Source: Eledone cirrhosa (Eukaryota). From it: DNA of 43,776 nucleotides. Shown here piece after piece: positions 3,971-43,776 of this stretch. Each line of letters opens with the position of its first letter. Positions within the stretch are counted from its first letter, which is position 1. The notes below the pieces were generated by a model. It was not told the DNA's origin. It ran no database searches and was given only the letters and a program-made list of their open reading frames with translations. The position numbers were made by a program, and so were the translations under genes. The DNA lies in assembly GCA_964016885.1 (NCBI GenBank), contig CAXHJY010001459.1, positions 1-43,776 of the forward strand. The letters run 5' to 3'.

Positions 3971-4252
3971 GTCGTGGAGGTGCCACCCCCACCGCAAGGT
4001 GGTCGTGGAGGTGCCACGGCAAAAAAGCACCCAGCCCACACTGTAAAGTGGACGTGTAGGCGCCACGAAAAAGCACCCAGCACTCACTGTAAATGAGGTT
4101 GGTGTTAGGAAGGGCATCCAGCTGTAGAAATCAAGCCAGATCAGTTCCTGTATGAGCAAGGCATGGTCAGCCGACCAGACACTGCCCACAACAGGACAAC
4201 CCGTCTAACCCATGCTAGCGTGGAAGAACGGACGTAAAACGGTGATGATGAT
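3971..4252 (+). mobile_element. RTE subfamily C 3' UTR only (severely 5'-truncated copy)
   Basis: 3989-4250 reads identical by eye to 34631-34892; ends cggacgtaaaacggt(gat)n running into (TA)n. Confidence 0.92.
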
Positions 4253-5741
<1,489 letters not shown>

Positions 5742-8700
5742 TAGCAGAAAAGTGGGCAGATAAGATAATAGACGTAAATAGAGTGAACGACAGAATAATT
5801 AAAATAAGACTTGTCCTCAATAGAACTACGGTGACAGTAATATCTGCGTACGCACCCCAATCCGGACTGCTCGGCACTATAAAAGACAGATTCTATGAGA
5901 CACTGATGCTCACTACCTCCCAAATAACCGACAGTGACTATATAATTATTGCAGGCGACCTAAATGGTCACGTTGGACAACATTGTGACGGCTACGACGA
6001 AATCTATGGAGGCTATGGGTTTGGTACTAGAAATGAGGAAGGCTCCAGAATCCTGGAATTCTGTGACGCAAATAACCTAACTATCTGTAACACTAACTTC
6101 AAAAAACGTGACAATCACCTGATCACCTATAGATCCAGGTAGATTATATCCTTACCAGAAGACGTGACAGAGTGTCTGTTGTAAACACTAAATCCCTCCC
6201 ACATGTAGAATGCACCTCCCAACATAGACTGATAATTAGCGACCTCATAGTCAAATATGGAAGCTAAAGGACCCCACAGCCAGAAATAAATTTCAAAGCA
6301 TATTACTTGATGCTTTCGACAGTAAGGAAGAGCATTTAGAGTCGGGCAATATAGAGGGACAGTGGGAATTTCTGAAAGCAAACCTGCTGATGGCGACAGA
6401 CGAAGTCTGTGGCTGGAGCAGGCCTGTTGGCAGGAGGAGAGTAACATGGTGGTGGAACAGTAAGGTGGAGGGGTCAATTAAGGCCAAAAAGCAGGCTTGG
6501 AAAGTATGGCAGGATGGGGGAAGTAGAGAAGACTATCAAGTGGCCAGGAGGGAAGCTAGGAGACAAGTGTACTTCGCAAGAAGGGAAGCAGAGGAAAGAA
6601 AGTTCAAGCATGTTCTACAACGCGAGGACCAAAAACGTGAGGTGTTCAGGATTGCTAGGCAATGTGTCAAGGAAAACCGTGATATTGTCGGGGAGAAGTG
6701 TGTACTTAATGATGACGGCGTACTTGCCATCACCGACGTTGATAAGAAGGTAGCTTGGAAGTGTCACTATGAAAGGCTACTAAATAAGGAGAATAAATGG
6801 GAGAAAGACAGTCTCCCCCACATCGACCCAATAGAGGGACCAGCAGTGTTAGTCGAGGGGAGTATAATAAGTAAGGCAATCAAGGATATGAAGACGGGTA
6901 AGGCGGCTGGGCCTTCGGAAATAGTTGCTGAGATGCTGAAGGCATCTGGCACGGTGAGACACACCATGGTCACCCGCATAGTTAACCAAGTCGTACAGAA
7001 TGGGGTTGTTCCGAAGGACTGGCATAGCAGCATCATCGTTAACTGTTATAAGGGTAAAGGAGATGCCCTAGATAGGAGTAACTATAGAGGCATTAAATTA
7101 ATCGACCAGGTCATGAAGGTCACGGAAAAAGTAATAGCGCAACTAATCAGAGAGAGAATTGACCTAGATGAAATGCAGTTCGGGTTTGTGTCAAGCAAAA
7201 GTACCACAGATGCTCTTTTCATTGTACGTCAACTACAGGAGAAGTACCTAGCTAAAGGTAAACCCCTCTACTTAGCTTTTGTCGACTTGGAGAAAGCCTT
7301 CGACAGAGTCCCTCGTTCCATTATCTGGTGGGCCCTTAGAAAACTAGGTGTCGATGAATGGCTTGTGAGAGCTATACAAGCCATGTATAAAGAAACAGTC
7401 AGCAAGTTTAGAATTAACAACGAATATAGTGAAGAGTTTAGCGTAAAAGTTGGCGTCCATCAGGGCTCTGTTCTCAGCCCCCTACTATTTATTATTGCCC
7501 TTCAGGCTATAACAGAGGAGTTCAAGACCGGCTGCCCATGGGAACTCCTATACGCAGACGACTTGACACTCATAGCTGAATCAATGGCCGAGCTAGAGAA
7601 GAAATTCCAAACATGGAAGCACGGCCTAGAATCAAAAGGCCTTAAAATTAACCTGGCTAAGACTAAAGTTCTAGTTTGTAGGAAAGAAAATAAGGCGCCG
7701 GTCCCTTCCGAGAAATGGCCATACTCAGTGTGTAGGAAAGGCGTAGGTAGAAACTCCATTTTATGTCCCAAATGCAAAGTATGGGTGCATAAAAGACGTA
7801 GTGGGATCACAGGTAAGCTAACTAAGAACATAGATTTTACATGTGGGCGGTGCTCTGGTGCAATAAGTAGCAGCAAGTGCCGACAAAATACTAGCTCTTA
7901 CAACTGCGCAGAGGGCTCTATAGAAATAGTTACCTGGGTGACAAAATCAGCAGTGGGGGAGGGTGCTCTGAAAGTACAGTAGCTAGAGTCAGAACTGGAT
8001 GGAAAAAGTTCAGAGAGCTTATACCACTATTAGCTGCTAAAGGGTTCTCCCTAAAAATGAAAGGCAGGTTGTATGATGCCTGCATACGAACAGCAATGTT
8101 GCATGGCAGTGAGACCTGGGCATTGTGTGCAGAGGATATACGCAGACTAGAGAGGAACGAAGCTTGCATGCTCCGCTGGATGTGTAATAGTAATATACAT
8201 GAACGGCAAAGCATAAACGAACTAAAGAAAAAATTAGAAATAAGAGGGATCAGATGTTGTTTACTCGAGAGAAGGCTATGGACACATGATGCGCATGAAA
8301 GTCGACAGCTGTATAACAAAGTGCAGGGCAATAAAGATAGACGGTAGCCACGGAATAGGCAGACCTAGAAAATCCTGGGACAAGCTGATAAACTCCGACC
8401 TCACACACTTACACCTCTCCAAGACAATGTCACTGGACCGAGACCTTTGGCGGTACTCAGTAATAGATAAGACCCGCATTACCTAAATACATAGTAAAAC
8501 CTACTACAGCCAGTAGGCATCTCTAACAAAATACACCCCCGTTCCACCACCCCCACCCCATCCACACCACCCCCTCCTATGTAAAGTTATGTTGGTGCCA
8601 CACCATCCAGGCCGAAACAAATGAGATCGTGTAGGTGTCACGACAAAAAAACAGACAGTCCACGCTGTAATGTGGCCGTGTAGGCAACACGGTAAAAACC

Positions 8701-8871
8701 TCCCAGACCCACACTGTAAATGTGGTTGGTGTTAGGAAGGGCATAGAAAACCTGTAGAAAACCTGCCAGACAGTCCTATGCGAGCAAGACAATCACTCTT
8801 GCCTCAAGTGGGAATACTCCCGTCCAAACCCATGCAAGCGTGGAACACGGACGTTAAACGTTGATAATGAT
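5742..8871 (+). mobile_element. RTE-clade LINE, subfamily A, 5'-truncated and disrupted
   Basis: APE endonuclease fragments ([17 protein letters not shown]), RT (FVDLEKAFD, GVHQGSVLSP, LYADD), [13 protein letters not shown], ~380-nt 3' UTR, gat tail; frameshifts and deletions near 6137, 6262, 7930, 8277. Confidence 0.95.
6390..7982 (+). pseudogene. RTE-A reverse transcriptase ORF fragment
   Basis: 530-aa ORF with all non-LTR RT motifs, followed by a degenerate PHD-like finger. Confidence 0.92.
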
Positions 8872-9641: not shown

Positions 9642-9754
9642 GCAAAAGTTTTATTTAAAATTGTTGGGTTACAACAAGTAAATATTTTATAACTGATATA
9701 AAGCACTCCACAAGTTTTTGGAGTAGATATACGATATTAAACAAATGGAAACTA

Positions 9755-11365
9755 AAATCTGACCTGGGAAAACTTAGCAAAAACATTCTAGACAGGGTAA
9801 TACAGCAAATTAAAAACTTACATAATTTACCTTACTTAAAGTTATGGAAGGGGACTGGTGAGGTTATTGAGTGGTTTAAAGAAATTAAATATAACTATAA
9901 TAATAAGTTTATTCAACTTGATATTGCTAACTACTATTCATCTATCACTCCTAATCTACTGAATAAGGCACTAAATTACGCATTTAAACATACAGACCTA
10001 ACTAGCAATGAAATGCACATTATATTATCGGCAAGGAAAACATTGATAGAATTTAATAACCAATTATGGACTAGGGCAGATAGAGATAATAATTTCGACA
10101 TAACTATGGGATCATCTGACTCAGCTCAGGTAACGGACCTTGTGGGCCTATTTATAATTAATTCGCTGCATAGAAAAATACCAGGTGTAACCGGAGGTTT
10201 ATATCGTGATGACATGCTTTTACTTATTGAAAATAATAACTGTGAACTAAATAGAAAAAGAAAACAAATTATACAATTTTTTAATTACCTTAATCTAAAA
10301 ATAGAAATAGAGAATAACCATAGAATAGTCAATTTCCTAGATGTAACACTAAATCTCAACACATGTCTTCACTATCCATTTCACAAACTAAATGAGAACT
10401 TGAATCATGTCAATTTTAACTCTAATCACCCCAGATCTGTTAAAAATACTATAGTGAACTCTGTTCAAGAACGAATCTCAAGAATTTCCTCTAATAAAAA
10501 TATTTTTGACGAAAAAGCGCAGTATTACAATGAAGCGTTAGCTAGAGCAGGATATAGTGATAAAATTAAGTACATCGATAATAATAAGCAAACTAACCAA
10601 AATAATAACAATTTTAATTACGGTAACAACATTAACAACTATAATAGAAAACATTACAATAATTCCAAAAGCCGAAAAAGAAATAGAACTAGAAATATAA
10701 TATGGTTTGCCCCCTCTTTTTCACTAAATATTAAAACCCATATTGCTAAACTATTCTTTAATGCTCTTGACAAATGCTTCCCTAGAACACATAAATATCA
10801 CTCAATTTTTAATAGACATACTATAAAATTAACTTACTCGTCCACCAAAAATTTAGCACAAAATATTAACAGAATTAATAATAGGAATTTAAAACATAAC
10901 CAAAATACCAATAATAACCCAAACAATATTCAATTAAATAACTGTAACTGTAGAAATAAATCTAACTGTCCGTTAAATAACAATTGCTTAGTTAAAAATA
11001 TAGTATACAATTGTAATGTTAAAACTAACTTAAATTCTTACAACTATGTTGGTTCCACCTCGACAGAATTTAAACTTCGCTTCAATAATCATAAGAATTC
11101 TTTCACAGATCCAAACAAAAAATCCTCAACTTCGCTATCAAGCCTACTCTGGCAACTTAAACGAGATAATGTTGAGTATTCGATGTTTTGGAATATTGTC
11201 GCAAGAGGGATTCCTTTTAATTCCTCATCTGAGACATGTGATCTCTGTGTGGAGGAGATATTCTTTATATTAAAATCCAAAAATTCCCTTAATTTAAGGA
11301 GCAATTTATTCAGTTGCTGCAGACATAGATTGAACTCAACGTTTAAATATAAATTTAAAATGTAG
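9755..11365 (+). CDS. PLE reverse transcriptase plus GIY-YIG endonuclease (N-terminally truncated, uninterrupted)
   Basis: Frame of ORF 10013-11365 is open back to 9755: QLDIANYYSSI, FDITMGS, GLYRDD, NFLDV, RNIIWF, CNCR-x4-CPL, IVY...YVGST, R-x3-H, CDLC, CRH. Confidence 0.92.
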   Translation, partial: KSDLGKLSKNILDRVIQQIKNLHNLPYLKLWKGTGEVIEWFKEIKYNYNNKFIQLDIANYYSSITPNLLNKALNYAFKHTDLTSNEMHIILSARKTLIEFNNQLWTRADRDNNFDITMGSSDSAQVTDLVGLFIINSLHRKIPGVTGGLYRDDMLLLIENNNCELNRKRKQIIQFFNYLNLKIEIENNHRIVNFLDVTLNLNTCLHYPFHKLNENLNHVNFNSNHPRSVKNTIVNSVQERISRISSNKNIFDEKAQYYNEALARAGYSDKIKYIDNNKQTNQNNNNFNYGNNINNYNRKHYNNSKSRKRNRTRNIIWFAPSFSLNIKTHIAKLFFNALDKCFPRTHKYHSIFNRHTIKLTYSSTKNLAQNINRINNRNLKHNQNTNNNPNNIQLNNCNCRNKSNCPLNNNCLVKNIVYNCNVKTNLNSYNYVGSTSTEFKLRFNNHKNSFTDPNKKSSTSLSSLLWQLKRDNVEYSMFWNIVARGIPFNSSSETCDLCVEEIFFILKSKNSLNLRSNLFSCCRHRLNSTFKYKFKM

Positions 11366-14157: not shown

Positions 14158-17100
14158 AGCTTATCAGCACAGCAACAAAACAGCATAGAAAAATATGAAG
14201 ACGTCGCATCTCAGAGTTGCAACACTTAATGTTGGCACTCTCAGAGGTAGATCTGCTGAAATAGCGGAGATGCTGGAGAGAAGGCAGGTGGATGTGTGCT
14301 GCGTGCAAGAGGTGAGATGGAGAGGTGCCTCTGCGAGACTAGTAGTAGGCAAGCGTCTTAGCTATAAGCTATTCTGGGTAGGTAAGGATGATGGGTTAGG
14401 GGGAGTAGGCATTTTCCTGGCTGAGAAATGGATCAATAAGACAATAGAGGTAGTTTGAGTTAGTAATCGAATAATTAAGCTTAGATTAGTTGTAGGTAGG
14501 AGACTACTGACAATCATCTCGGTCTATGCTCCCCAAGCAGGCCTAGGCAAAGATGAGAAAGACTGCTTTTATGAGCAACTTTTGCAAACAACCACAATGA
14601 CAGAGGACGGAGACATCGTTATGCTAGCAGGAGACTTCAATGGTCATGTTGGACAGCTCCAGGATGGTTACACTGGGGTACATGGTGGGCACGGTTACGG
14701 TTCAAGAAATGAAGAAGGAGTGAGACTTCTTGAATTTTGTGATGCAAGTACATTGACTATTTGCAACACAAACTTCCAGAAACCTGCCAATCACCTAATA
14801 ACCTACAAATCTGGTGAGCACATAAGCCAGATTGACTTCCTGCTAGTTAGGCAGCGGGACAGGCAGATAGTGTCTAATACCAAGGCATACCCTGGGGAAG
14901 AATGTACCCCACAGCATAGGTTAGTTGTTAGTGATATCTCAGTAAGCAAGAGATGGAATGAGACATATAGGAAGGTGTGGAGAAGAAAGGTCTGGAAGCT
15001 AAAAGACCTTTCACTAAAATACAAATTTAGGAAAGCCCTTCAAGATGTATATGACGAAAAAGAATACGATTTAGAGACGTATGACATAGATAATAACTGG
15101 AATTTCTTACGTGACAACTTGCTGCAGGCTACTGATGAAACCTGTGGCTGGAGCAGAGCTCCAACCAGACAGAGAGTGACCTGGTGGTGGAACAGCACAG
15201 TAGATAAGGCTATTAGAGACAAAAGACTAGCATGGAAGGCTTGGAAAAAGGGTGGGAGTAGGGAAGAATATACAGCCACTAAGAGAGAAGCTAGACGTCA
15301 GGTGTACTTAGCATGCAGGGAGGCAGAGAGTAGGAGGTTTGCCAATGTTCTGCGACGGGAAGATCAGAGGCATGTGGTGTTCCACATTGCAAGGCAGTGT
15401 GTCAATGCAAATCAGGATGTTGTTGGAGATAAATGTGTCCGGGATGATGCCGGTGTACTTAGTGTCACGAATGACCAGAAAAAGGAGGCCTGGAAATGTC
15501 ATTATGAGAGACTGATGAATGTGGAGAACGAATGGGAGAGAGAGAAATTACCCTTGGTAGATCCGACAGAGGGACCAGCTATTGAGATTGACGAATATAG
15601 GGTCCAAGAGGCAATTAGGGAAATGAAAAATGGTAAGGCTGCCGGACCATCGGGGATAGTTGCTGGGATGCTGAAGGCATCAGGGGACGTAGGCACTAAA
15701 CTGGTTGCACGCATCATCAATCAGACTATATATGGTGGTGTCATACCCAAAGACTGGTGCAGCAGTATTCTCATAAATTGCTACAAAGGTAAAGGGGATG
15801 CTTTGGAGAGGAGCAATTATAGGGGTATAAAACTGATAGATCAGGTTATGAAAGTGGCAGAAAGGATTTTAGCACAACTAATTAGAGAAAGGGTCAAACT
15901 AGATGAGATGCAGTTTGGTTTTGTGCCTGGGAAGAGTACAACAGATGCCCTCTTCTTGGTGAGACAAATGCAAGAGAGGTTCTTAGAGAAGAATAAGCCA
16001 CTATACTTAGCCTTTGTTGACCTAGAGAAGGCCTTTGATAGGGTACCCCGATCTGTCATCTGGTGGTCCCTAAGGAAGCTAGGTGTTGAGGAATGGCTTG
16101 TGAGGACAGTGCAAACTTTGTACAGAGGTACTCTCAGTAAAGTCAGGGTAGGAATGGAGTTTAGTGAGGAATTCCAGATACAAGTAGGAGTACATCAGGG
16201 TTCGGTCCTCAGCCCGCTCTTGTTCATTATAGTCCTCCAAGCCATAACAGAGGAGTTTAAGACTGGCTGTCCATGGGAACTTTTCTATGCTGACGATCTG
16301 GCTCTTATAGCAGAATCAGTAGAGGAGCTAGAGAATAAATTCCGGCTATGGAAACAGCAGTTGGAAGCAAGAGGACTGAGAGTAAATCTAGCTAAGACAA
16401 AAGTGTTGATGAGTAGAAAAGAGGACAAAACCCTGATTCCGTCAGGGAAATGGCCATGTTCGATATGCAGAAAAGGAACTGGCATAAATTCTATAAAATG
16501 CACACAATGCAGGTCCTGGGTACACAAGAGATGTAGCGGGATAGCAGGCAAACTAACAGGTAGGGAGAAATATGTATGCAGTATAGATGTACAGGGAAAT
16601 TAGACAGTAGAAGTCGCACTGATAGACACATTTTTCAAATGCGAGAGGGCGCTATAGAAGTGGTGGATAGCTTCCGGTACCTAGGAGATCAGATTAGCAT
16701 GGGAGGAGGGTGTTCCGAGGCCATAGTATCTAGAATAAGGACGGGTTGGAAGAAGTTTAGGGAGCTGCTTACTCTGTTTACGAAGAAGGGTTTCTCCCTG
16801 CGTACAAAAGGCCGGTTGTATGATGCCTGTGTGAGGAGCGCGATGCTGCATGGTAGTGAGACATGGGCAGCAACCGCAGAGGATATGCGACAGCTGGAGA
16901 GAAATGAGGCAAGCATGCTCCGTTGGATGTGCAGTGTAAATGTGCGTGAACGACCCAGCATAAATGTGTTGAGAGAGAAACTGTGTCTGAGAGGGATAGA
17001 ATGTAGTGTACGGGAGAGGAGACTGAGGTGGTATGGACATGTGATGTGCATGGAGGATGACCGATGGGTGAAGAAGTGCCAGGAAATGCCAGTTGAAGGA

Positions 17101-17282
17101 AGATGTGGTAGAGGTAGACCACGAAAAACATGGGCGGAGGTGGTGAGAACAGACCTCAGATCATTGAAGCTCACGGTGGAGATGACGAGGGACCGTGACG
17201 AGTGGAGAGATGCTGTGCTGAATAAGACCCGTCCCACCCTTGCAAGCATGGAAAAGCGGACGTAAAATGATGATGATGATGA
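14158..17282 (+). mobile_element. RTE-clade LINE, subfamily B, near-complete coding region
   Basis: Begins at the endonuclease N-terminus ([15 protein letters not shown]), full RT, ends [13 protein letters not shown] directly into (GAT)n. Confidence 0.96.
14195..17265 (+). pseudogene. RTE-B APE endonuclease-RT-PHD ORF (~1020 codons) with two lesions
   Basis: ORFs 14195-14458 and 14582-16603 share a frame and are separated by one TGA (14456-14458); 2-bp insertion near 16582 relative to the copy at ~20675. Confidence 0.93.
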
Positions 17283-18865: not shown

Positions 18866-19313
18866 CATCATCATCATCATCATCATCATCAACGTTTAAC
18901 GTCCGTGTTCCACGCTTGCATGGGTTTGGACGGGGGTAGTCCCACTTGAGGCAAGAGTGATTGTCTTGCTCGCATAGGACTGTCTGGCAGGTTTTCTACA
19001 GTTGGATGCCCTTCCTAACACCAACCACATTTACAGTGTGGGTCTGGGAGGTTTTTACCGTGTTGCCTACACGGCCACATTACAGCGTGGACTGTGTGTT
19101 TTTTTGTCGTGACACCTACACGATCTCATTTGTTTCGGCCTGGATGGCGCGGCACCAACATAACTTTACATAGGACGGGGTGGTGTGGATGGGTGGGGGT
19201 GGTGGCGGGACGGGGTGTATTTTGTTAGAGATGCCTACTGGCAAGGCGGGTCTTCTCTGTTACTGAGTACCGCCAAAGGTCTCGGTCCAGTGACATTGTC
19301 TTGGAGAGGTGTA
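18864..19313 (-). mobile_element. RTE subfamily A 3' end, 5'-truncated
   Basis: Reverse complement closely matches ~8409-8871; (CAT)n tail on the + strand. Confidence 0.92.
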
Positions 19314-19889
<576 letters not shown>

Positions 19890-22969: not shown

Positions 22970-23696
22970 ACAACAATGTTGCATGGTAGTGACCTGGGTG
23001 CTGTGTGCAGAAGATTTGCATAGATTGGAAAGAAATGAAGCTTGCATGCTCTGATAGATGTGTAATAGTAATATACGTGAACGGCAAAGCATAAATGAAC
23101 TGAGAGAAAAACTAGGAATAACAGGAATCAAATGCTGTGTGCAGGAAGGAGATTACGTTGCTATGGCCACGTGTTGCATATGAAGGATGACAATCGTATA
23201 AAAAAGTGTGGAACGCTCAAAGTCGATGGAAGCCTTGGAGTGGGGAGACCCAGAAAGACTTGGGATGAGGTGATAAAAGCTGACCAGGCCCAATTGCACC
23301 TCTCAAAGGCAATGAATGACACAGGACCGAGATCTCTGGCGTTACACAGTAATACAGAAGACCTGACTTCCCACGGGCACAGGCTGAAGCTGAAGCATAT
23401 ATAGAGTATGCCCCACCCCACCCTCCTACTGTAAAGTGGTCGTATAGGTGTCTTGACAAAAAGCACCCAGCTCACACTGTAATGTGGTCATGTAGGCGTC
23501 ATGACAAAAAGCGCCCAGTACTCACTGTAAATGAAGTTGGCATTAGGAAGAACATCCAGCTGTAGAAACCAAGCCAAATCAGTTCTGTATGAGCAAGACA
23601 TGGTCACCTGACCTAGCATTGGCCACAACAGGACAACTCATCTAACCCATGCTAGTGTGGAAAAATAGCCATAAAACGGTGATGATAATGATGATA
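22970..23696 (+). mobile_element. RTE subfamily C, 5'-truncated, moderately diverged
   Basis: MLHGS...GRPRKTWDEVIKAD; 3' UTR homologous to 34600-34900. Confidence 0.9.
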
Positions 23697-24233: not shown

Positions 24234-25295
24234 GATGTAGTGGGATCACAGGTAAACTAACCAAGAATATAGATTTTATATGTGGCCGGTGCTCTGGTGC
24301 AATAAGTAGTAGCAAGTGCCCACAGGATACTAGCTCCTTCCATTGCCCAGATGGTTCTATAGAAATAGTAGACACCTTCCGTTACCTGGGTGACAAAATC
24401 AGCAGTGGTGGAGGGTGCTCTGAAAGTACTGTAGCTAGAGTCAGAACTGGTTGGAAAAAGTTCAGAGAGCATATACCACTATTGGCCGCTAAAGGTTTCT
24501 CCCTAAGAATGAAAGGCAGACTGTATGATGCCTGCATACGAACAGCAATGTTACATGGCAGTGAGACCTGGGCATTGTGTGCAGAGGACCTGCATAGACT
24601 GGAGAGGAACGAAGCTTGCATGCTCCGCTGGATATGTAATAGTAATATACGTGAACGGCAAAGCATAAATGAACTAAGTGAGAAATTAGGAATAAGAGGG
24701 ATCAGATGCTGTTTACTCGAGAGAAGACTACATTGGTATAGTTACGTGATGCTCATGAAAGACGACAACTGTATAAACGGTAGCCACGGAGTAGGCAGAC
24801 CCAGAAAAACCTGGGACGATTTGATAAATTCCGACCTCACACACACCTCTCCAAGACAATGTCACTGGTCCGAGATCTTTGGTGCTATGCAGTAATACAG
24901 AAGACTCTCCTTGCCTAAGTACAAAGCGAAACCTACAGACAGTAAGCACCTCCTAACCAAAAGTACACCCTCACCCCACTACCCTTACCCCACACCCCCA
25001 TCTACACCTAAAGTTATGTGGGTGCCACAACATCCAGTCCTAAATAAATGAGGTCGTGTAGGTGTCACGACAAAAAAAAACACACAGTCCATGCTGTAAT
25101 GTGGCCGTGTAGGTAACACGGTAAAAACCTCTCAGTCCACATTGTAAACGTGGTTGGTGTTAGTAAGGGCATCCAGCCGTAGAAAACCCGCCAGACAGTC
25201 CTATATGAGCAAGACAACCAATCTTGCCTCACGTGGGACAATTCCCATCTAAACCTATGCTAGCATGGAAGATAGACGTTAAACGACAATGATGA

Positions 25296-25298
<3 letters not shown>
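24234..25298 (+). mobile_element. RTE subfamily A, 5'-truncated
   Basis: Homologous to ~7796-8871 including the 3' UTR; (GAT)n tail into (TA)n. Confidence 0.93.
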
Positions 25299-25337
<39 letters not shown>

Positions 25338-25454: not shown

Positions 25455-25527
25455 TATATATATATATATATAAATGTTGAATTATAAGTACTGTGACAGT
25501 TCCGAAGACCTGATTTTTAGATTTACA

Positions 25528-25706
25528 TGTGTTAGTGCCATGATAAAAAACACCTGGTAGCACTGTAAAATGCTAGTGCTGGTACCACAATAAAAAGGAC
25601 CCAGTCCACACTGTAAAGCGGTAGTGCTGGTGCCATAAAACTAGTTAGCACTGTAAAGTGATATTACTGGTACCACGAAAAAAAAAAAAACACTCAGTCC
25701 ACTGTG
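25528..25706 (+). repeat. Degenerate tandem array (~4 x 40-48 bp) of the unit found in RTE-A/C 3' UTRs
   Basis: Repeating gtgctggtgcca...aaaaa...cccagt...cactgtaaa. Confidence 0.75.
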
Positions 25707-26423: not shown

Positions 26424-26815
26424 AGGCACATGGCTTAGTGGTTAGAGCATTGGCCTTGCAATCGAAAGGTTGTGAGTTCAATTCTCAGACCGGGTGATGT
26501 GTTGTTTCCTTGAGCAAAACACTTTATTTCACATTGCTCCAGTTTACTCAGCTGTAGAAATGAGATGATAGGGACTGGAGTCCCTATCATTCCACTGCAA
26601 AGTAGTTGTGGAGGTGCCACGGCAAAAAAGGACCCAGCCCACACTGTAAAGTGAACGTGTAGGTGCCATGGAAAAAAAGCACCCAGCACTCACTGTAAAT
26701 GAGGTTGGTGTTAGAAAGGGCATCCAGCTGTAGAAATCAAGCCAGAATCAGTTCCCATCCCACCCTTGCAAGCAGGGAAAAGCGGACATAAAATGATGAT
26801 AATGATGATGATGAT
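26424..26815 (+). mobile_element. Chimeric tRNA-derived SINE with RTE-C 3' module and RTE-B terminus
   Basis: A box tggcttagtgg, B box gagttcaattc, CORE-like ccttgagcaaaacacttt; 26592-26756 matches the RTE-C UTR; 26758-26815 matches the RTE-B end. Confidence 0.85.
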
Positions 26816-33705: not shown

Positions 33706-34906
33706 AAGCAGGGACTAGAGAGAAAGGGCCTCAAAGTCAACATGACAAAGACTAAGGTCCTTATAAGTAGACGAGAAAACAGAACCCAGATCCCCTCAGG
33801 GAAATGGCCTTGCTCAGTATGTAGGAAAGGTGTAGGTAGGAACTCCATTCTTTGCCCCAAATGCAAACAATGGGTACACAAGAGATGTAGCGGGATCTCA
33901 GGAAGCTTAATTAAGAATGTAGGATTCACATGCAGCAGCTGTGCTGAAACAGCAAGCAAACAGCCACAGGAAACAAGTACCACCAATCTCTGGGAGGGCC
34001 CTGTAGAAACAGTAGACAGCTTCTGCTACCTAGGTGACCGAATTAGCAACGGAGGTGGGTGCTCAGAAAGTACAATAACTAGGGTAAGAACGGGATGGAA
34101 GAAGTTTAGGGAACTACTACCACTGCTAGCTGCAAAAGGCTTCTCCCTCAGAATGAAAGGCAGACTGTATGATGCGTGTATCCGAACAGCGATGTTGCAT
34201 GGTAGTGAGACCTGGGCGCTGAAGGTGGAAGACTTACGTAGATTAGAGAGAAACGAAGCCTGCATGCTCCGATGGATGTGTAACAGTAATATACGTGAAC
34301 GACAAAGCATAAATGAATTGAGAGAGAGACTGAGCATAAGAGGAATCAAATGCTGCGTGCAGGAGAGGCGGTTACGCTGGTATGGACATGTGATGCGTAT
34401 GAAGGATGACAGCTGCATAAAAAGGTGCAGAGCACTAGAAGTTGATGGAAACCGCGGAGTGGGGAGACCCAAGATGACTTGGGATGAGGTGATAAAAGCC
34501 GACCTTACCCAACTACACCTCTCAAAGTCAATGACACACGACCGTGACTTCTGGCGTCACGCAGTAATACAGGGTACCCGACCTCCCATGGGTACATGCT
34601 GAAGCATATAAACAATATGCCCCCCCCCCCCCACCGCAAGGTGGTCGTGGAGGTGCCACGGCAAAAAAGCACCCAGCCCACACTGTAAAGTGGACGTGTA
34701 GGCGCCACGAAAAAGCACCCAGCACTCACTGTAAATGAGGTTGGTGTTAGGAAGGGCATCCAGCTGTAGAAATCAAGCCAGATCAGTTCCTGTATGAGCA
34801 AGGCATGGTCAGCCGACCAGACACTGCCCACAACAGGACAACCCGTCTAACCCATGCTAGCGTGGAAGAACGGACGTAAAACGGTGATGATGATGATGAT
34901 GATGAT
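33706..34906 (+). mobile_element. RTE subfamily C, 5'-truncated, young (uninterrupted ORF 33742-34602)
   Basis: Intact PHD finger, [22 protein letters not shown]; ~300-nt 3' UTR; (GAT)n tail. Confidence 0.95.
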
Positions 34907-35539
34907 TTATCAGAAAATAATATACAAGTGAAAATGATTTGATACTAGGCCATACATATCATCATCATCGTTTATATTAGGGGAAACAAGAAAGCAGATG
35001 AATTAGCAAAAGATGGAGCACAAAGAGAAATGATAGATATAAGTTAAATCATTCACCGAAAACATAATTAGTGAAGGGTGGGAAAATATTGGGAAGAATC
35101 TAGAGGTAAGCAAGCTATCAAATTTCAATCTTCCATTATCTCAACCAGATCTGTGGATGTATGAAATGTATCAAGATATTGAATAAGGTTAAAAAATAGA
35201 GACTTTATTGACTTGGAATGGGCCATATTCCTTTAAACTGTATTTTATCAAGATCAGGTCCTATGAAATCACTATGAAATCACATTTATGTTGTCATAAA
35301 GACTATCTTGAGACTTTATGGCATTATTTGTTCCAATGCAAACATGCCAGTCTGAGAGAAATAACATTTTAAAATTAGTTGTAAAAAGGCTGCCATTACT
35401 GGAGGTGAAATTTATTTTCAATGATCCACTAACCATAAATAAGATCTTTTAATTTATGGAAGCTACAAAAAGATTTAACAGAAACATTTAACAGTTTTTT
35501 ACCCTACCTTCCTCTAATGTTTTTGTTTATTATATGGTG

Positions 35540-38018: not shown

Positions 38019-38240
38019 AGGGCGGCAGATTAGCAGTATCTGTGGAGCATCGGACATGTTTTATGGCATAGAATTACGGCCCTTTACGATCTGAGTTCAA
38101 ATCCTGCCGAGGTTAGCTTTACCTTTCATCCTTATGGGGTTGATAAAATAAAGTACCCGTAATGCACTGGAAGCGATTTAATCGATTTTCCCCACCACCA
38201 AAATTTTGGCCTTGTGCCTAAATCAGAAACCAATATTATT
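38019..38240 (+). mobile_element. tRNA-derived SINE (Nin/Deu-like domain)
   Basis: gagttcaaatcc B box, cctttcatcc...gataaaataaagtacc, ggccttgtgcc, (TTA) tail. Confidence 0.82.
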
Positions 38241-38342
38241 GGTTATTGGTTCATAAATATAAGTTATGAACAAAGTTATCGAAGGAATTCATTTGGTTGA
38301 TTAACAACTGGGACACTGCCCAATCCTACTGTGACCCACCTC

Positions 38343-38561
38343 AATAATAATAATGGTTTCTTATTTAGGCACAAGGCCAACAATTTGGGGGAGAAGAAAG
38401 TCGATTAAATTGACCCCAGTAGGTTACTGGTGCTTTATTTTATCGACCCTCGTAAGGTGACAGGCAAAGCTAACCTCAACAGGATTTGAACTCAGAACGC
38501 AAAAAGCCATAACTAGATGCTGCAAATTATATTGTCCGACGCTCTACCAATGCCAATTCCC
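38343..38561 (-). mobile_element. tRNA-derived SINE (same family, inverted)
   Basis: Reverse-complement homology to 38019-38240. Confidence 0.82.
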
Positions 38562-41816: not shown

Positions 41817-43776
41817 TCATCATCATCATTTAACGTCCATCTTCCATGCTTGCATGGGTTTGGACGGGAGTTTTCCCACTTGAGGCAAGAGTGGTTGTCT
41901 TGCTCGCATAGGACTGTCTGGCGGGTTTTCTACGGCTGGATGCCCTTCCTAACACCAACCACATTTACAGTGTGGAACTGGGAGGTTTTTACCGTGTTAC
42001 CTACACGACCACATTACAGCGTGGACTGTGTGTTTTTTGTCGTGACACCTACACGACCTCATTTGTTTCGCGCTGGATGTTGTGGCACCGACATAACTTT
42101 ACATTGAAAGGGGTGGTGTGGATGGGGTGGGGGTAGTGGGACGGGGGTGTATTTTTGTTAGAGGTGCCTACTGACTGTAGTAGGTTTCACTTTGTACTTA
42201 GGTAAGGCGGGTCTTCTGTATTACTGTGTAGCGCCAAAGATCTCGGTCCAGTGACATTGTCTTGGAGAGGTGTAAGTGTGTGAGGTTGGAATTTATCAAG
42301 TCGTCCCAGGTTTTTCTGGGTCTGCCTACTCCGTGGCTACCGTCTATTTTTATTGCCCTGCACTTTTTTATACAGCTGTCGTCTTTCATGCACATCACGT
42401 GACCGTACCAACATAGTCTTCTTTCGAGTAAACAACATCTGATCCCTCTTATTTCTAATTTTTCCCTTAGTTCATTTATGCTTTGCCGTTCACGTATATT
42501 ACTATTACACATCCAGCGGAGCATGCAAGCTTCGTTCCTCTCCAGTCTGCGTATATCCTCTGCACACAATGCCCAGGTCTCACTGCCATGTAACATTGCT
42601 GTCCGTATGCAGGCATCATACAGCCTGCCTTTCATTTTTAGAGAGAACCCTTTAGCGGCTAATAGTGGTATAAGCTCTCTGAACTTTTTCCATCCAGTTC
42701 TGACTCTAGCTACTGTACTTTCAGAGCACCCTCCACCACTGCTGATTTTGTCACCCAAGTAACGGAACTATTTCTATAGAACCATCTGTGCAATGGAATG
42801 AGCTAGTATTCTGTGGGCACTTGCTGCTACTTATTGCACCAGAGCACCGGCCACATATAAAATCTATATTCTTAGTTAGCTTACCTGTGCTCCCACTACA
42901 TCTTTTATGCACCCATACTTTGCATTTGGGACATAAAATGGAGTTTCTGCCTACTCCTTTCCTACACACTGAGCATGGCCATTTCCCAGATGGGACCGGT
43001 GCCCTATTTTCCTTCCTACAAACTAGAACTTTAGTCTTAGACAGGTTAATTTTGAGGCCTTTTGATTCTAGGCCATGCTTCCATGTTTGGAATTTCTTCT
43101 CTAGTTCAGCCATTGATTCAGCTATGAGCATTAGATCATCTGCGTATAGGAGTTCCCATGGGCAGCCGGTCTTGAACTCCTCTGTTATAGCCTGAAGGGC
43201 AATAATAAATAGTAGGGGGCTAAGAACGGAGCCCTGATGAACACCAACTTTTACGCTAAACTCTTCACTATATTCGTTGTTAATTCTAACCTTGCTGACT
43301 GTTTCTTTATACATGGCTTGTATAGCTCTCACAAGCCATTCATCAACTCCTAGTTTTCTAAGAGCCCACCAGATAATGGAATGGGGGACTCTGTCAAAGG
43401 CTTTCTCCAAGTCGACAAAAGCTAAGTATAGGGGTTTACTTTTAGCTAGGTACTTCTCCTGTAGTTGTCGTACAATGAAAAGAGCGTCTGTGGTACTTTT
43501 ACCTGACACAAACCCGAACTGCATTTCATCTAGATCAATTCGCTCTCTGATTAGTTGCGCTATTACTTTTTCTGTGACCTTCATGACCTGGTCGATTAAT
43601 TTAATGCCTCTATAGTTACCCCTATCTAGGGCATCTCCTTTACCCTTGTAGCAGTTAATAGTGATGCTGCTACGCCAGTCCTTCGGAACAACCCCATTCT
43701 GTATGACTTGGTTTACTATCCGGGTGACCATAGTGTGTCCCACCGTTCCAGAAGCTTTCAGCATTTCAGCAACTAT
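41817..43776 (-). mobile_element. RTE subfamily A (continues beyond window end)
   Basis: ORFs 42751-43764 (RT plus intact PHD) and 42198-42758 are nearly identical to RTE-A at 5742-8871; same 3' UTR and tail. Confidence 0.95.

Follow-up and report, generated by a model that had tools for sequence, protein, structure and literature searches.

What might a tandem array of hairpin-forming units do when it lies between the open reading frame (ORF) and the terminal tail of a long interspersed nuclear element (LINE)? The question is raised by an RTE-type LINE in a 43,776 nt stretch of Eledone cirrhosa DNA (assembly GCA_964016885.1, contig CAXHJY010001459.1; hereafter the window), the 3' untranslated region (UTR) of which was described in an earlier, sequence-only reading as three copies of a selected RNA module, each comprising a GNRA hairpin and an H-type pseudoknot. 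The block is found to be an insert restricted to one clade of RTE copies and conserved above neutral sites, and its last third is a motif found in the 5' UTR of other RTEs. With a probability of a little under one half (roughly 0.47), it is tentatively interpreted as a captured bipartite tail, of the type shared by RTEs and short interspersed nuclear elements (SINEs), kept as an accessory RNA signal that would bind the element's protein or protect its RNA during retrotransposition.

The window consists of animal DNA in which (TA)n repeats, (TG)n repeats and retroelement copies abound. The LINE is classed as RTE on its domain order, its tail and a 5'-UTR motif common to named RTEs, all of them features read from sequence. 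The copy at the locus is 5'-truncated, and sibling copies encode RVT_1 and an endonuclease domain; in one of these (14195-17245), a single ORF places an N-terminal AP endonuclease start (Exo_endo_phos_2, 26 bits, just under the cut-off of 27.4) ahead of the reverse transcriptase (RT; RVT_1) and a PHD finger. As is typical of the clade, a 3' stem-loop is followed by a microsatellite in place of poly(A), and neither AATAAA nor ATTAAA occurs in the long UTRs of family C, to which the locus belongs, or of the family A copy near 42.0 kb (A42). The best named match in a protein search with the LINE ORF was a hydrozoan protein, at 50%. The ORF stop lies at 34600-34602, with the first hairpin starting about 30 nt downstream.

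Seven RTE tails of the window, from three families, carry the block: C at 34.6 and 4.0 kb, B at 23.4 kb, and A at 8.6, 19.1, 25.0 and 42.0 kb (Table 1). The block forms an insert ranging from 265 nt in family C to about 345 nt in A42, present in all five aligned long-UTR copies and in none of the three aligned short-UTR copies, in which the ORF end leads directly to the tail. When a tree was built from the ORF ends, with midpoint rooting and one long outgroup branch, the five long-UTR copies formed a single clade (100/100) and the three short-UTR copies and four outgroup loci fell outside it. Between ORF end and tail, the leader motif that closes the block is absent from the RTE 3' ends of the metagenome loci L012, L024, L032 and L074, and from 15 related loci among the matches listed (15 of 19). 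The block was inserted late and is missing from sister RTE families, so it cannot be the clade's basic RT-recognition signal; RT recruitment was one of the roles considered in the sequence-only reading.

Table 1. Positions of the features discussed, in window coordinates.
Feature	Position	Strand	Remark
RTE-type LINE ORF, 5'-truncated (end of RT region, PHD finger, C-terminal domain)	33706..34602	+	PHD E 9e-7
Insert, between CCCG of the ORF end and CCCG of the terminal stem-loop region	34577..34841	+	265 nt
Unit 1 hairpin H1, CCACC-GCAA-GGUGG, 5 bp	34631..34644	+	GCAA tetraloop, C-G closed
Unit 1 H-type pseudoknot (predicted)	34644..34673	+	stem S1 34644-49/34657-62, stem S2 34652-56/34669-73, 6-A linker
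Unit 2: H1 CACU-GUAA-AGUG (34681-92), 4-bp S1 (34695-98/34706-09), interrupted loop-tail helix	34676..34722	+	
Third H1 hairpin, CUCA/UGAG	34725..34739	+	adjoins leader motif
RTE 5'-UTR-type leader motif, core AGGAAGGGCATCC, ends GTAGAAA	34739..34772	+	third unit of the sequence-only reading
RTE 3'-terminal tail with stem-loop (34852-34865)	34842..34884	+	common to long-UTR and short-UTR families and SINE
(TGA)n microsatellite end of element	34885..34906	+	
Family C tail copy, 5'-truncated, starts at unit 1	3983..4252	+	99.6% identical
Family B long UTR, two units and leader motif, behind ORF remnant	23381..23695	+	
Family A long UTR	24908..25299	+	RTE-A of the sequence-only reading
Family A long UTR behind RT ORF that leaves the window	41817..42211	-	
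Family A long UTR behind endonuclease-RT copy starting near 5744	8477..8871	+	
Family A tail, 5'-truncated	18870..19314	-	
SINE: tRNA-like head, two units and leader motif near family C, short-UTR RTE tail	26425..26815	+	
Degenerate array, about four units, without ORF, leader motif or tail	25520..25705	+	

The final part of the block, taken by the sequence-only reading as a third unit of a structure that it did not recognise among described LINE 3' UTRs, is on sequence similarity the RTE 5'-UTR segment set out in the supplement of PMC7245038. The hairpin that precedes it is present; a covariance model built from 16 units gave no match to this third unit at E<=2, and a third pseudoknot on the leader motif was rejected as a candidate, its helix having 2 bp in families C and B and 4 bp in the family A copy A19 and being absent in most metagenome loci. 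The motif, GGTT..G.GT.AGGAAGGGCATCC.GC..TA.AAA, has seven matches in the window at up to three mismatches against 0.14 expected, all of them in 3' tails or the SINE and none upstream of an endonuclease ORF. A scan of metagenome contigs with the motif core returned at least 120 loci; among the 121 matches listed, 97 have a twister-like sequence immediately upstream, as judged by a pattern of our own, 15 belong to a family with a plain hairpin and nine are of other kinds. The Rfam model twister-P1 matched 17 of 18 loci chosen from the twister-like class (E 1e-10 to 0.46), all under the gathering threshold; a scan of 12 motif loci gave no Rfam match at gathering and one of 17 further loci gave no ribozyme. 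The motif stands some 200-300 nt upstream of an endonuclease ORF in L010, L018, L041 (which has an internal deletion following the first codons) and L124, and is followed by a spacer and an RTE tail in short elements with a head of their own (L044, L057, L074, L148 and L151), the tail of L148 closely resembling that of the window. This joining of a 5'-UTR part to a 3' tail, characteristic of bipartite elements, is likewise found at 34739-34906, where it is fused behind an ORF, and in the SINE at 26425-26815. In genome contigs, motif scans gave nine animal-like matches and one other; in viral contigs they gave 0 and 8 chance-like matches.

Two groups of these loci merit separate description. 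L037, L045, L059, L067, L069, L072, L093, L099, L103, L107 and L121 represent an RTE family, short and bipartite, with a plain hairpin rather than a twister at its start, a fixed 5' end and first bases able to pair with the motif core. The loci L124-L151 are eukaryote-type RTE and SINE sequences within contigs of prokaryote genome bins, and look like bin contamination.

Upstream of the motif, the units repeat with a period of 46-48 nt directly behind the ORF encoding the RT/PHD C-terminus, bearing out the proposed tandem arrangement of about 48 nt, and the three named hairpins lie where they had been placed. Only two units, however, have the second hairpin, A-run and complementary tail that had been claimed for three. 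H-type pseudoknots are familiar in geometric detail from tobacco mosaic virus (TMV) and luteoviruses, and of the units at the locus, unit 1 (34631-34675) is the sole one with a clean fit to this form: S1 pairs GUCGUG with CACGGC (6 bp) around a 7 nt loop, and the last five loop letters, GGUGC (34652-56), are complementary to GCACC (34669-73) behind six A, much as originally described. G34644 is shared by the competing stems H1 and S1. A strict descriptor of the compact pseudoknot, composed after the unit had been inspected, matched unit 1, the copy of it at 4002 and a further unit at 23487, as well as ten rows of AT-rich or (TA)n sequence elsewhere in the window, and none of 1500 shuffles of 34631-34785. 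Judged on two interleaved stems with feasible loops, the geometry is predicted for unit 1 of family C and unit 2 of family B, partially for family A, and not for unit 2 of family C or the third unit. Unit 2 at the locus is degenerate, with an S1 of -2.8 kcal/mol, C34703 facing A34717 in the loop-tail helix and a stronger rival partner for its tail downstream, at 34740-47 behind the next hairpin (-12.8 kcal/mol).

The GNRA hairpin, said to open each unit, varies similarly. It is closed in unit 1 of families C and B and of the SINE, with a U-A closing pair and a GUAA or GCAA loop in the latter two; family A lacks the H1 hairpin in unit 1 and has U-U at the closing position of unit 2. The closing position is unpaired in four of 15 rows and A-U in four rows whose hairpin is lost; the recurring element is a 4-5 bp stem around CUGUAA(A/U). 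The family A counterpart of the second hairpin and complementary tail was seen at 25105-25130, as reported. A scan of the whole window against Rfam gave no match at the locus among the matches listed (150 of 222), and in a focused scan of the locus the sole match was a 13-bit snoRNA on a microsatellite.

Between family C and A42, the units are identical at 73 of 91 positions (80%), the count for unit 1 taking in a C-rich stretch aligned over a long gap; the corresponding figures are 35/39 for the leader motif, 31/41 for the tail, 28/54 for the spacer, 33/51 for the 5' part of the insert, 102/186 for third codon positions and 18/50 (36%) for four-fold degenerate sites. The units are therefore more conserved than four-fold sites (Fisher p 3e-7) and than the spacer (p 7e-4).

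Pairing was assessed over 17 units from the window, with D3, which has no tail, dropped; the rows are related and the column shuffles ignore this relatedness, which reduces the force of the following figures. Across S1 and S2 together, 79.7% of cells are paired compared with 75.3% in the shuffles, a level reached in 1/5000 for the 17 units and 18/5000 for ten family representatives. For S2 the values are 2/5000 and 112/5000, and for S1 258/5000 and 424/5000. In a MAFFT alignment, where S2 is out of register in several family A rows, 76.4% were paired with a covariation score of 0.217, neither being equalled in 500 shuffles and all slid controls being lower. Differences between units include two series that keep the pair (U-A, U-G and C-G at S1 pair 2; C-G, U-G and U-A at S2 pair 5), one old copy in which C-G replaces U-A at S2 pair 3, and the same change in the pair closing the unit 1 tetraloop, where the two variant letters each account for roughly half the depth in run X1 (52% for C>T at 34635 and 49% for G>A at 34640), unphased.

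A number of observations weigh against the proposal of a captured block kept for its RNA fold. Unit 2 taken alone shows no excess of conservation over the 5' part of the insert (38/47 vs 33/51, p 0.11), and recent exchange of the block between families could also give high identity. Pair types changed on both sides numbered 4 against 2.9 in shuffles (1317/5000, not significant), or 5 in the MAFFT alignment (121/500 as high), and some of the changes are at CpG sites. The loop-tail helix is broken in unit 2 of family C, in near-identical copies, in unit 1 of family A, where the first S2 pair is lost, and in unit 2 of A19 and A8. The tails of units C2 and S2 and of unit 1 in family A have rival partners downstream, and for this reason the U-A change in stem S2 need not serve a pseudoknot. 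Nested folding energy is ordinary (z -1.32, 20/200 shuffles as low), with z-scores of -1.47 to +0.50 across eight regions. An intact RTE 5' UTR is absent from the window, in which the long-UTR elements' own 5' ends are not represented. Hairpins of at least 5 bp and unrelated sequence adjoin the motif in six of 13 non-twister representatives, where shuffles gave 1.6; this counts in favour of the proposal, but the permitted distance was widened post hoc, and the narrow setting gives 4/13 vs 0.7. Comparisons also gave no source for the upstream units: the similarity of the unit to the leader motif is at chance level (49-292 of 1000 shuffles as high), as is that of the units to sequences upstream of the motif in seven loci (51-938 of 1000). 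Finally, the SINE of the window is ruled out as donor, its tail being that of a short-UTR family and its block too near family C. Taken together, the data fit a selected RNA structure in at least one unit per element, with redundancy between units, and fall short of proving the pseudoknot: of the original claim of a selected fold, conservation above neutral sites and pairing above column shuffles stand, and the double-sided changes expected of it do not reach significance amid changes that break the helix.

With the SINE, the module also extends beyond RTE 3' UTRs. Its tRNA match (26431-26488) scores 28.1 bits against a gathering threshold of 29, the middle segment is one that we take to be CORE-like, and the block (26592-26755) has 92% identity to the module. 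Overall the block is 89-100% identical to that of family C, and it resembles that of family C more closely than the latter resembles those of A or B; the SINE is therefore a recipient or exchange partner rather than a donor. Its junction recurs as a loose end in run X4. A near-perfect hairpin was also noted within the SINE at about 26561-26591. The degenerate array at 25520-25705, which has an H1 stem with other letters (UAGCA/UGCUA), is probably another family carrying the unit.

Searched with the unit model R1, the window gave 19 places at E<0.001, of which 16 had served as training rows, while 157 other distinct loci (L001 and L122 being left out) gave no value below E 0.076; a unit pattern had no matches in genome contigs and one chance-like match in viral contigs. 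LINE protein scans found 1 and 19 loci in genome contigs and none in viral contigs. No significant homology linked the unit with the leader motif or with V-domain-like hairpins.

The history that we favour begins with a short non-autonomous bipartite element, probably consisting of an RTE 5' leader and an RTE 3' tail, as the source. Since CCCG is found on both sides of the insert, capture is suggested to have occurred by insertion at, or template switch to, a LINE 3' end, and a single event would be the simplest course. The 47 nt unit would have been duplicated in tandem before or after capture, and its copies are predicted to fold as a hairpin followed by an H-type pseudoknot. The resulting accessory signal would aid the assembly of the ribonucleoprotein (RNP) or the survival of the RNA for reverse transcription. 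The terminal stem-loop would stay the likely core recognition site, because short-UTR sister families transpose with the stem-loop alone; recognition of a 3'-tail stem-loop by ORF2 has been shown for L2-clade LINEs (PMC4176376). An accessory role is favoured because SINEs of several phyla set an RTE 5' segment before the tail and because this LINE clade kept the block as synonymous sites neared saturation.

The alternative that best withstands these data, though still rather unlikely, is that the block is a captured passenger, with its conserved appearance produced by exchange of 3' modules between LINEs and SINEs through template switching or gene conversion, and its pairings being inherited palindromes that play no current role. 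That modules are exchanged is shown by the block, which is 89-100% identical between the SINE and family C although the two have different tails. Sister RTE families without the insert have still left copies, family C retains a degenerate unit 2 in two copies that are 99.6% alike, and the folding energy is unremarkable. In run X1, the units and third motif have about 4-5 times the summed contig depth of the ORF end or spacer; this depth is no copy number, but the profile fits a block common to several families. Set against this, families A, B and C hold both flanks of the insert in register, with the flanks having diverged more than the units, and the differences between families include the pair-keeping changes at S1 pair 2 and S2 pair 5.

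It is unlikely that the capture amounts to a more specific innovation, in which a 5'-leader module moved to the 3' UTR and expanded to a tandem array would constitute a new cis-acting RNA element, giving higher-affinity RT loading or substituting for poly(A), and would have been pirated by SINEs. A related idea, resting on analogy and quite doubtful, is that the block is a translation or stability element of the 3' UTR that would replace poly(A) in the manner of TMV, or an exonuclease block giving a stable short 3' RNA. The elements do end in (TGA)n, their long UTRs in family C and A42 are devoid of polyadenylation signals, and unit 1 is predicted to be compact, its linker being A-rich; in the TMV case, poly(A) can take over from the domain in stimulating translation (PMC5382211). 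Yet no Rfam or sequence relation to Xrn1-resistant RNA, the TMV upstream pseudoknot domain or any viral 3'-UTR element was found at the locus, and the block is retained by a non-coding SINE and lacking from short-UTR coding families. The copy at 3983 starts at the start of unit 1, as might follow from an exonuclease block, but a single 5' end proves nothing.

Improbable too is an action of the block as DNA, the relocated motif serving as an internal promoter or transcription factor site, multiplied by the tandem units, which would drive leader-plus-tail or read-out transcripts. Kojima (2018) speculates that conserved parts of RTE 5' UTRs bind transcriptional regulators, and some RTEs carry two copies of the conserved part in the 5' UTR (PMC5786205); the motif is also conserved chiefly in sequence, RNAalifold yielding a weak consensus of six pairs (-1.79 kcal/mol) from loci in which the search pattern had fixed most letters. 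By contrast, the motif is often found right behind a twister-like ribozyme, in elements that would thereby be excised from host transcripts (PMC8501958), and both the hairpins of unrelated sequence that adjoin it and the pair-keeping changes point to RNA.

It is very improbable that the units represent a small self-cleaving ribozyme of a kind not yet described, or its remnant, and self-cleavage finds no support: although they lie directly upstream of the leader motif, the place taken by twister-like sequences in 97 of the 121 metagenome matches listed, the locus has none of the twister (RF03160) features sought (the L4 loop UCCCAAGC, P2/P4 stems and two pseudoknots), the long UTRs of C and A42 lack the hammerhead core of CUGANGA with GAAA, no Rfam ribozyme matches at the locus, other non-twister families have plain hairpins at the same place, and cutting between ORF and tail would part the coding region from the priming end and behead the SINE, an argument made for SINEs in PMC5786205.

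Several further features of the window and the reads were noted. At the head of the truncated family C copy (3971-3990, + strand), a short stretch duplicates the unit 1 sequence of the same copy, ahead of the C-run. Family A has an additional degenerate partial unit 5' of unit 1, ending in CATCCAG as the leader motif does, at 8583-8615, 19135-19167 (- strand), 24990-25045 and 42065-42100 (- strand). Over 34420-34910, run X1 contributed 49,027 contigs, runs X4 and X7 12 and 76, and X24 none; X4 record 9 and X7 record 17, from runs labelled as other organisms, have zero letter differences over the ORF end of this family C element (RTE-C), a match for which close relatives, mixed samples and horizontal transfer are indistinguishable. 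Elsewhere are a 568-codon open frame at 9659-11365 (+ strand) with no convincing Pfam match (BET, 17 bits, under the cut-off), a long inverted repeat resembling a miniature inverted-repeat transposable element at 38166-38420, with a sub-threshold MIR7533 match, and a 158 bp tandem duplication, 91% identical, at 584-903.

Parts of this arrangement have precedents. In hagfish, the 5'-UTR segment in RTE-2_EBu as well as in RTE-4_EBu (Kojima 2020, PMC7245038) shares the motif, with core GGAAGGGCATCC ... TAAAA and a structured element before it, and SINE1-1_EBu and SINE2-9/10_EBu have the motif, then a spacer and an RTE 3' tail; two RTE 5' parts stacked in one SINE are also described, and the passages of that paper bearing on the segment give no structure for it. 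Unlike in the hagfish elements set out there, the block here occupies the 3' UTR of protein-coding RTE families, and tandem 47 nt units come before it. Similarly, bipartite non-autonomous RTEs and RTE-derived SINE bodies such as Bov-A/Bov-tA, AfroSINE and Ceph-SINE join a 5'-UTR part to a 3' tail (PMC5786205), with modules exchanged through recombination or template switching and the 5' parts being recurrent SINE bodies of unknown function; the flow in that account is from LINE to SINE, unlike the entry into a LINE 3' UTR proposed here. The Ceph-domain RTE segment is a different sequence, four motif strings having 0 matches in the supplement of PMC5786205, and the printed Ceph-SINEs differ from the motif by eye. 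The leader of Perere-3 in Schistosoma, as presented in PMC8501958, has a twister and then a hairpin segment, GGTTGG...GTAGAAAA, that resembles the third unit, but it differs in the sequence of its middle, in the presence of the twister and in being 5' rather than 3'. The TMV upstream pseudoknot domain, as outlined in PMC5382211, offers a parallel in its tandem compact H-type pseudoknots, A-rich linker and 3' UTR free of a poly(A) signal; unlike TMV and luteoviral knots, the units have no sequence or Rfam relation to them, are interleaved with hairpins and are predicted to form at most one intact knot per element. In the stringent LINEs ZfL2-1 and ZfL2-2, as described in PMC4176376, a structured RNA near the 3' end is common to LINE and SINE; unlike there, the counterpart here is the terminal stem-loop and the tandem units, 130-220 nt upstream, are extra.

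The motif and the bipartite layout are therefore known, and the fixation of the motif in the 3' UTR of coding RTE families, together with the tandem hairpin-pseudoknot units, was not found in Rfam or the papers searched. A literature search outside which Repbase, Dfam and subscription journals lay turned up nothing on tandem pseudoknots in the 3' UTR of an RTE, nor is the unit described in passages of PMC9115989, PMC13282606 (octopus repeats), PMC4824008, PMC4758252 or PMC6765202; the sequence may well sit uncommented in repeat libraries.

If the block is a passenger, it represents ordinary retroelement mosaicism. If it is an accessory signal, it would bear on why SINEs of many phyla keep an RTE 5'-UTR segment ahead of the tail, the function of which is a matter of speculation only in the passages of PMC5786205 that treat it. 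Sister families with and without the segment co-exist in one genome and offer a natural control against which binding, stability and retrotransposition could be compared, and the distribution of the block suggests that modules flow from non-autonomous elements back to autonomous LINEs. RTE elements have been engineered as gene writers, with changes to the UTRs raising yield (PMC13708176), and an accessory RNA signal of this type, if true, would be of practical use for gene writing.

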